DNA of 30,252 nucleotides, taken from IMG/VR virus record IMGVR_UViG_2548876960_000006, one strand, 5' to 3'. The position numbers and the translations under genes were made by a program. The notes under the pieces are model-generated. The model made no database searches, was not told where the DNA came from, and worked only from the letters and a program-made list of their open reading frames with translations. Positions 28,225 through 29,012 of the stretch are shown piece by piece (within the stretch, counting starts at the first letter, position 1; each line of letters opens with the position of its first letter). Origin of the DNA: a virus. Lineage: Duplodnaviria > Heunggongvirae > Uroviricota > Caudoviricetes.

Positions 28225-28256
28225 AAAAAAGCCCGCGACATCAGATGTGGCGCGGG
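28225..28256 (-). terminator. rho-independent terminator for the 238-aa cargo gene
   Basis: On the minus strand: stem CCCGCG / CGCGGG (plus-strand 28232..28237 and 28251..28256) around a palindromic 13-nt loop, followed by TTTTTT (plus-strand A-run 28225..28230); about 40 nt after the gene stop. Confidence 0.6.
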
Positions 28257-28295
28257 ATGGATAGAAATTTATTCTTATAGAACAACTGAAAAAAA

Positions 28296-29012
28296 TTACT
28301 TTAAACTGAGTTTAAAATTTTTGAATTTACCATACAGGGTATCGCGTACAGAAAAGGAAGGAACCCAATTGAATCCTGTTCGCCATGGGCGAGGACTACC
28401 GTGAAAGCATACAACTGAAACATCATCAGGAACTTTGCCAGTAGCATAATCTGATGCCAAGTCAGGGTTGTAACCTATCATTTTACGTGTGGCTATATGG
28501 CATTTGTAACTAACAACAGATCCGGGAATTATATCTTGCCACAATACAGGTTTCATGACGCTACCCAGAAACCCCTGATCACCCCATTTATCTTCTGTTT
28601 GGCATTCATGCATATTTTTTTCGGGGTCAGTCCAGAACGCATCCCAAACATATTGTTTGATAGACGCAGGAATGAACATAATGGATGAGTTAACCCTGGA
28701 AGGGTGGTTAAACTCCCGCAGCATAGTGAACTCTTTCGCCGCATCAAAGATTTTGATATCACCAGTTATGACAACATCAACGTCAAAATAAAGCAGATCC
28801 TTATCACCTATTACCGGATGGTTTGGATTAAAAAGCTCAATCTTAGACCACCAACCTGGAAGGTTGTGCATTAACGGTGCGGTTTCAACACCAGGGATAC
28901 TTCCAGCATCAGTTAAGCAAATTGAAGGTATGCCTTTAAATTGGCTATGCAGCCATTGTGCGTGTTTGGGGGTAAATTCTTTACCGCATTTAAGGACGGA
29001 TACAATCAGCAT
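28296..29012 (-). CDS. cargo protein of unknown function with a DxD motif (possible GT-A-type nucleotide-sugar transferase)
   Basis: 238 aa, opposite strand to the tail genes, visibly AT-rich, own terminator. A hydrophobic strand followed by DVD (LLYFDVDVVITGD) is reminiscent of GT-A glycosyltransferases; no transmembrane segment seen. Confidence 0.45.
   Translation of the reverse strand: MLIVSVLKCGKEFTPKHAQWLHSQFKGIPSICLTDAGSIPGVETAPLMHNLPGWWSKIELFNPNHPVIGDKDLLYFDVDVVITGDIKIFDAAKEFTMLREFNHPSRVNSSIMFIPASIKQYVWDAFWTDPEKNMHECQTEDKWGDQGFLGSVMKPVLWQDIIPGSVVSYKCHIATRKMIGYNPDLASDYATGKVPDDVSVVCFHGSPRPWRTGFNWVPSFSVRDTLYGKFKNFKLSLK

Follow-up and report, generated by a model that had tools for sequence, protein, structure and literature searches.

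A single gene, placed near the right end of a prophage and read from the strand opposite to the late operon, raises two questions: what kind of enzyme does it encode, and which molecule would accept the group that this enzyme transfers? The gene lies in IMG/VR virus record IMGVR_UViG_2548876960_000006 (Caudoviricetes), a stretch of 30,252 nucleotides (nt) that was analysed as a whole and is called here the window. It is an open reading frame (ORF) of 238 amino acids (aa) on the minus strand, with an ATG start, and its predicted product is of roughly 27 kDa. The preliminary description of this DNA, made from the letters alone, had reported such an ORF opposite the tail operon, ascribed to it a GT-A transferase function and left the acceptor open. 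All of this holds, and the assignment can be sharpened: the product is very probably a glycosyltransferase (GT) of GT-A fold; it belongs, as a remote member, to the retaining GT8 clan, in which glycogenin, LgtC and the Skp1 alpha-galactosyltransferase are found, and is homologous to PmgQ of phage P1. As to the acceptor, the present evidence narrows the choice, tentatively towards a host envelope glycan.

Identity of the enzyme

A direct assignment came from PHROG 1962 ('glycosyltransferase'), whose profile matched residues 1-223 of the GT protein at profile positions 1-224 of 230, with an E-value of 4.2e-81. No match was found in Pfam and NCBIfam scans (in Pfam even at E<=10), and almost all of the 283 relatives recovered from 5.8 billion proteins are likewise devoid of a Pfam domain. 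Conservation was read from an alignment of 50 relatives, which also served as the profile in the searches described below. Eight residues are invariant in it (K57, D77, M112, D145, S168, C202, G205 and P209), and seven others nearly so (D79, G144, Q146, F203, H204, P207 and W210). The stretch LLYFDVDVVITGD, in which a DxD behind a hydrophobic strand had been recognised earlier, corresponds to residues 73-85. Since D77 is invariant and D79 is conserved in at least 90% of the homologues, this DxD is not a chance occurrence. G144 and Q146 reach the same level of conservation (at least 90%) around the invariant D145.

The conserved residues coincide with catalytic motifs of GT8 enzymes in the alignments with glycogenin: K57 aligns with a Lys of that protein, D77xD79 with its DxD and G-D145-Q146 with GGDQG, while VVCFHGSPRPW of the GT protein stands against VVHFLGQTKPW of glycogenin in the hidden Markov model (HMM) alignment. 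The position of the canonical GT8 metal-binding His is occupied by an invariant Cys (C202), and a conserved His (H204) is found at +2. When the profile was compared with all PDB sequences, it matched GT8 enzymes only, namely the Skp1 alpha-galactosyltransferase Gat1 (2.6e-8), many glycogenins (4e-7 to 6e-5) and GlyE (5e-3). The Pfam family PF01501 (Glyco_transf_8) gave weak matches in 17 of the 50 relatives, the best at 7e-4, and the GT protein itself falls below the curated threshold of this model. Because of this failure, and because of the Cys at the canonical His position, the enzyme is GT8-like rather than a Pfam-defined member of GT8.

The structure predicted by AlphaFold2 from the same alignment had a predicted local distance difference test (pLDDT) value of 96.8 and a predicted template modelling (pTM) score of 0.93. 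The 25 best matches of this model to the PDB in Foldseek were all GT8 or GT24 enzymes, with Gat1, glycogenin and LgtC in the lead; in the viral structure library, it matched uncultured-phage proteins named 'Glycosyl transferase family 8' and fusions with MptE-like domains. Thus, the checks of fold and homology that the preliminary description had proposed for its GT-A transferase came out in its favour, the fold being nearest to GT8 structures and the homology (PHROG 1962, the PDB matches, PF01501) leading to transferases only. Retaining chemistry with a UDP-sugar donor would be expected from the behaviour of the family and from the conserved D145-Q146 loop. The protein has no transmembrane segment, as had been stated before; the highest Kyte-Doolittle mean over 19 residues is 1.09.

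Position of the gene in the prophage

The window contains a prophage with P2/186-type regulation, in which genes for integrase, 186-type CI/CII/Fil, Dam methylase, replication protein A and ogr are accompanied by P2-type portal, terminase and capsid genes and by an HP1-type baseplate. It is inserted between mntS and mntR, a site that sister prophages use in other Escherichia coli genomes. Its tail/baseplate operon ends at 27779 with the gene of a 567-aa gp5/V-like spike protein; the GT ORF is convergent with this operon, 3.4 kb from the tail-fibre-assembly gene of the window. Up to position 28199, the sister prophages are 95-97% identical to the window; beyond it their genes are others, in strain MFDS1019527 those for a hexapeptide acetyltransferase and for an AAA ATPase, and homology returns about 120 bp before mntR. 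Therefore, the GT gene forms a cargo cassette of one gene and occupies a variable slot at the right prophage end, with the last tail gene on one side and attR on the other. This divergence supports the cargo character and horizontal acquisition suggested previously, and the low G+C content on which the suggestion was based is real: 41.6% in the GT ORF versus 51.7% in window 1-28200. At third codon positions it is 37%, as compared with 58% in the adjacent spike gene.

Two further genomes are informative about this cassette. In Citrobacter amalonaticus, a prophage of the same type carries a 98% identical GT gene as its sole cargo gene, which argues that the GT acts alone. This prophage and the window cease to be similar at 29029, so that they share no more than 17 nt before the start codon of the GT. 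Beyond the GT gene, the cargo of the window consists, in order, of a tRNA-Ile scar, a 54-aa ORF, and the genes for DUF6338 and PDC-S64 proteins; this DUF6338/PDC-S64 block appears to be a separate insertion, and the native promoter region of the GT gene is no longer in place. In E. coli Combat13F7, the same prophage has a cargo region 100% identical to that of the window and an intact GT gene, and it lacks window 3164-26229, a 23-kb internal deletion that removed all morphogenesis genes. As a result, the 3' part of the spike gene is fused with the Fil region, and 37 bp at the junction are identical to window 19927-19963.

Two groups within the family

The family to which the GT protein belongs is large. 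In an exhaustive HMM search, 6033 representatives of 50%-identity clusters were found at E<=1e-3 (4156 at <=1e-10 and 1703 at <=1e-30), most of them 195-230 aa long, and IMG/VR holds at least 574 copies. By tblastn, the gene was detected in 31 phage records, including Escherichia phage Chlobot (76%) and, at about 40% identity, P1 (pmgQ), P7 (hdmD) and SJ46. P1 PmgO (220 aa; phrog_4603, 'alpha-2,3-sialyltransferase'; positions 4144-4806 in a P1-like contig) clusters by BLAST with the PmgQ family, and in this way a single late operon of P1 encodes two related predicted glycosyltransferases, PmgQ and PmgO, along with the phosphatases Ppp and Pap. According to context, the family splits into group A, made up of short proteins without a basic tail, and group B, which is enterobacterial and has such a tail.

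Group B, to which the gene of the window belongs, comprises the relatives with at least 49% identity to it (P0001-P0035; 238-270 aa). All of them end with a basic C-terminal tail of about 20 residues (consensus WVPxFSlkdtLyGKiKnfKLxlK, net charge +3 to +11), which is confined to this group and absent from the more distant relatives, P1 PmgQ and the phiNP proteins. Among unrelated temperate phages, similarity is limited to the GT ORF (70-73% DNA identity) and the flanks are not conserved. The places taken by the cassette are the following. In lambda-like Chlobot it lies between int and the tail-fibre genes; it is separated from the tail-fibre-assembly gene by 27 nt in a P2-like prophage and by 26 nt in Citrobacter myovirus-type prophages; and in a P2-like prophage of E. 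albertii it follows the tail-fibre-assembly gene at the prophage end. In a pig-associated E. coli lineage, which accounts for 18 of the 24 GT-carrying E. coli genomes, the gene is found between ogr/portal and primase of a P2-like prophage. This position, from ogr/portal to the replication gene, is the gpA-gpQ hotspot in which P2-like phages carry old, tin and other anti-phage systems (PMC9122126). The cassette also persists outside functional phages: the GT ORF is intact in GDSC2227PM, a lambda-like prophage in decay with tail genes reduced to pseudogenes, and the Vitreoscilla massiliensis chromosome has, among housekeeping genes and with no phage genes within 7 kb, a copy that is 56% identical and ends in the same kind of cationic tail.

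The acceptor of the sugar

For group B, we tentatively favour a host envelope glycoconjugate as the acceptor over a virion protein. In the mechanism that we propose, a UDP-hexose would be bound with a divalent metal by the DxD motif and by H204 and/or C202, and the sugar would be moved with retention, giving an alpha linkage. The acceptor would be a glycoconjugate made on the cytoplasmic side of the inner membrane, such as the outer core of lipopolysaccharide (LPS) or an undecaprenyl-linked repeat unit, and the lysine-rich C-terminal helix would keep the enzyme on the anionic membrane surface. The changed surface sugar could then block adsorption of phages that use it as a receptor, resulting in lysogenic conversion or superinfection exclusion. 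Such receptor masking would account for the association of the cassette with tail-fibre modules and for its presence in exclusion hotspots.

Several features of group B argue for this acceptor. The cassette is tied to no particular type of virion and, to judge from C. amalonaticus, acts alone; it is retained in prophages unable to make particles and in a chromosome, and it accompanies cassettes of receptor-binding proteins as well as exclusion hotspots. Moreover, a polycationic tail suits an anionic membrane, and GT8 includes the alpha-hexosyltransferases of the LPS and lipooligosaccharide outer core, among them LgtC and the enterobacterial WaaO/R/J/T, all of them peripheral membrane proteins whose acceptors are lipid-linked.

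There is also evidence that weighs against an envelope acceptor. We know of no documented phage GT8 enzyme that modifies LPS, and the known seroconverting glycosylation systems are of the membrane GtrABC type, not lone cytoplasmic GT8 proteins. Distant relatives of the gene are placed in late and structural operons, which points to virion targets at the level of the family. Gat1, glycogenin and GlyE, leading structural matches, are protein-directed enzymes, and LgtC scores nearly equal to them. Metal use, and activity itself, are assumed here in spite of the His-to-Cys replacement seen in the aligned sequences. Expression in the lysogen would demand a promoter, and a scan for the sigma-70 consensus detected none upstream of the GT ORF (29013-29189), nor upstream of the C. 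amalonaticus copy. The Eisenberg helical moment of the C-terminal tail (0.27) equals that of shuffled sequences (0.27 +/- 0.13); the idea of an amphipathic helix was dropped for this reason, and cationic character alone is claimed. In the model, the tail has high pLDDT and may pack on the domain instead of inserting into the membrane. Finally, literature searches (PmgQ; prophage GT8 and LPS; P2 hotspot and glycosyltransferase) revealed no functional study of a family member, and all that is known of pmgQ is that it is non-essential (PMC10695390).

The alternative that survives best, although we consider it unlikely for group B, is glycosylation of the virion: the sugar would be attached to a phage structural protein, in view of the gene linkage most likely the tail fibre, and alter particle stability, adsorption or immune recognition. 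It draws its strength from group A. In about 10 environmental contigs of HK97-type siphophages, a GT of this group is encoded on the same strand as its neighbours between the major head protein (phrog_10) and the Ad1/Hc1 connectors (phrog_40/25), often preceded by an FkbM-type methyltransferase (phrog_8156) and one or two paralogous GTs. The order is similar in a Halomonas prophage (capsid, 156-aa ORF, Methyltransf_21, GT, Phage_connect_1, Phage_HCP). A 413-aa fusion of the GT with an MptE-like domain lies between portal and capsid genes, adjoining a PIG-L-like protein; the other fusion partners are rhamnosyl-O-methyltransferase-like (that is, a sugar O-methyltransferase), class-I methyltransferase, MptE/Maf-like and GT9-like domains. 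P1 pmgQ is located in the late operon after ppp, with its paralogue pmgO in the same operon, and phiNP of Citrobacter rodentium has two paralogues between its lysis and terminase genes. Such a gene order is what would be expected of enzymes that make a (methylated) glycan on virion proteins. The adjacency of close relatives of the GT gene to the tail-fibre-assembly gene, and the protein-glycosylating GT8 enzymes among the best structural matches, would fit as well. However, the gene of the window is on the strand opposite to the late operon and 3.4 kb away from the tail-fibre-assembly gene. Group B is found in phages whose capsids and tails are unrelated, once far from the tail genes, and in a bacterial chromosome free of phage genes; its GT is intact in prophages stripped of virion genes, and the cationic tail is missing from the members in structural operons.

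A second alternative, which we regard as improbable, is that a cytoplasmic protein of the host or of an invader, for instance a translation factor or a protein of an incoming phage, is glucosylated in the manner of GT-A toxins, so that the single gene would bring about exclusion or abortive infection. The cargo hotspots, including the gpA-gpQ defence hotspot of P2 (PMC9122126), the PDC-S64 candidate nearby in the window and the one-gene nature of a cassette that acts alone are in line with it. On the other hand, the GT protein had no match among the PADLOC-DB 2.0 models at E<=0.1, no partner immunity gene is present, and stable carriage without obvious regulation speaks against toxicity.

P1, which carries a homologue, is not known to us to have glycosylated DNA. 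The remaining alternative, addition or extension of sugars on modified phage bases for restriction evasion, has a precedent in some GT8-like GT-A phage enzymes that lengthen glycans on 5-hydroxymethylcytosine in DNA (bioRxiv 10.1101/2023.12.21.572611), and the cationic tail could bind nucleic acid, but we set it aside as very improbable because the prophage has no hydroxymethyl-base pathway: neither the window nor an annotated sister prophage encodes a C5-methyltransferase, TET/5mYOX or hydroxymethylase, and the early region codes only for a D12 Dam methylase, an ASCH/DUF3850 protein and replication protein A. The persistence of the GT in decayed prophages and in a chromosome also speaks against it.

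Transcription signals and neighbouring sequences

The features of the locus are collected in Table 1. Of the two terminators between which the ORF had been said to lie, both exist; the placement was wrong, as both are situated 3' of the gene. That of the tail/baseplate operon was called by the consensus scan and folds at -13.4 kcal/mol (z -4.5). The other had been described as the gene's own terminator. The hairpin and the U6 run are indeed there, but the fold is thermodynamically modest (-11.5 kcal/mol, z only -1.9) and was missed by the consensus scan; it is a plausible terminator of the GT gene, weaker than the other two. The third, 5' of the GT gene, was called by the scan, folds at -17.2 kcal/mol (z -5.2) and separates the GT gene from the upstream minus-strand DUF6338/PDC-S64 operon. 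A dyad of the P2 Ogr-type late promoter (TGT-N12-ACA) was found neither near the GT gene nor at the expected late promoters, and this search is therefore uninformative. ARAGORN and Rfam searches over 27780-29640 gave no RNA gene, merely sub-threshold look-alikes of leaders and terminators.

Table 1. Coordinates of the GT gene, its motifs and the surrounding elements in the window
Feature	Position	Strand	Remarks
GT8-like (GT-A fold) glycosyltransferase ORF, PmgQ / PHROG 1962 family	28296..29012	-	238 aa
D77-V78-D79 codons, DxD nucleotide-sugar/metal motif	28776..28784	-	aligned to DxD of glycogenin and Gat1
G144-D145-Q146 codons, GT8 'GDQG' catalytic loop	28575..28583	-	aligned to glycogenin GGDQGLLN
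C202-F-H204-G-S-P-R-P-W210 codons, variant of GT8 HxxGxxKPW	28383..28409	-	HMM alignments to glycogenin and Gat1
Lysine/arginine-rich C-terminal helix, residues 219-238	28299..28358	-	helix 222-237 in the model
Plausible intrinsic terminator of the GT gene	28225..28256	-	hairpin 28232-28256 and U6 at 28225-28230
Intrinsic terminator of the tail/baseplate operon	27792..27816	+	hairpin 27792-27808, then T-run
Strong terminator 5' of the GT gene	29190..29221	-	29198-29221 in the scan
5' region of the GT gene, expected to carry the promoter	29013..29189	-	no consensus promoter
Variable cargo region	28200..30252, on past the window end to about 120 bp before mntR	.	break of homology with sister prophages

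Around the cassette, several other elements were noted. A stretch of about 92 nt (29214-29305, minus strand) matches, with 89% identity, the 3' part of tRNA-Ile genes of E. coli together with the sequence that follows them. It is flanked by the terminator at 29198-29221 and by another terminator at about 29375-29405, and ARAGORN called no tRNA in it. It looks like an att-type scar of a second insertion, that of the DUF6338/PDC-S64 block, 17 nt before the GT start, and the strong terminator 5' of the GT gene is probably derived from it. Further upstream (29469-30252 and beyond, minus strand) there follow a 54-aa Q/P-rich ORF, a DUF6338 membrane-like protein and two further small ORFs. The 341-aa protein of this operon, two genes from the GT gene, matches the PADLOC candidate system PDC-S64 (2.5e-47), and the operon continues at 9770-12570 of the Combat13F7 record; it shares the cargo slot with the GT gene and is a candidate for a defence system. 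On the other side, at 27984-28109 (plus strand), the conserved spacer that separates the tail terminator from the start of the cargo region includes a 90-aa ORF without a family match. A Phe-leader-like fold in it scored 22 bits (gathering score 55), which is below threshold and probably due to chance.

Two observations concern distant parts of the prophage. A 48-aa ORF (13539-13685, plus strand), flanked by gpM, the gene of the small terminase, and by the head-completion gene, consists nearly entirely of GAHTHTV/GAHSHSL repeats (MKESHLQGAHTHTVGAHSHSLGGAHTHTVGAHSHSLSGAHTHTFNTEQ), and the GxHxH unit is also present in the tail fibre gene (24087-24152). The DUF3850/ASCH-domain protein of the early region (4103-4453, plus strand; 7.5e-23) is encoded just upstream of the Dam methylase gene and overlaps it.

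Significance

The PHROG 1962/PmgQ family already carries the database label 'glycosyltransferase', and our analysis of the enzyme mainly confirms it. Less ordinary are the division of the family into groups A and B, the gene order by which glycosylated capsids are predicted for phages of Proteobacteria, P1 among them, and the repeated association of the group B cassette with tail-fibre genes. Taken together, these could mean that the lysine-tailed group is a new minimal module of conversion or exclusion, and that the tail-less clade, with P1 PmgQ and PmgO, marks a widespread, hitherto overlooked decoration of proteobacterial phage particles with methylated sugars; that both halves hold is possible but doubtful. 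In the first half, the sugars of the LPS core or of some other lipid-linked glycan would be altered by one GT8-like enzyme in the cytoplasm, whose gene would pass from one temperate phage to an unrelated one along with tail-fibre cassettes, and into the defence hotspots of P2. If this were true, a single 0.7-kb gene could alter surface sugars of E. coli, Citrobacter and Salmonella lysogens and hence their phage sensitivity, with relevance for phage therapy, serotyping and the reading of 'hotspot' cargo in prophages. The family as such, with its approximately 6000 sequence clusters, has no Pfam model, even though two genes of the model phage P1 belong to it.

Comparison with known systems

The closest named relative is P1 PmgQ (HdmD of P7), designated 'glycosyltransferase' in RefSeq. 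It is homologous to the GT protein over 93% of its length with 39.5% identity (tblastn), falls in the same PHROG 1962 and has the DxD, GDQG and CFHGxPxPW motifs in common with it. It differs in being encoded in a late operon with the paralogue PmgO nearby, and in having, instead of the lysine-rich tail, an acidic one; its isoelectric point (pI) is 5.8. Characterised GT8 enzymes (glycogenin, LgtC of Neisseria, Gat1, GlyE of Streptococcus pneumoniae, WaaO/R/J) are only 11-16% identical to the GT protein. Enzymes of the WaaJ type possess extra C-terminal domains, whereas the GT protein, with its 238 aa, is minimal and lacks them.

The glycosyltransferases that act on the capsid or tail tube of mycobacteriophages resemble the short relatives located, with methyltransferases and extra GTs, in the head-to-connector block. 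Such a layout has been reported for phages with glycosylated virions (cited in PMC11256854, among others). The GT gene of the window is unlike them, as it lies outside structural operons, on the opposite strand, in a phage of Proteobacteria.

In position and presumed purpose, the cassette is similar to GtrABC, with which it has no component in common. The GtrABC genes of P22, SfV and SfX form AT-rich conversion cassettes near the att/int end, beside the gene of a receptor-binding protein, and are transcribed apart from the late operon. They are three, encoding the GtrA flippase, the GT2 bactoprenol glucosyltransferase GtrB and the polytopic GtrC, whereas here one soluble GT8-like protein is found among unrelated neighbours. 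Because this protein is single and soluble, with no GtrA, GtrB or GtrC at its side, any modification that it introduced would be confined to the cytoplasmic side of the membrane.

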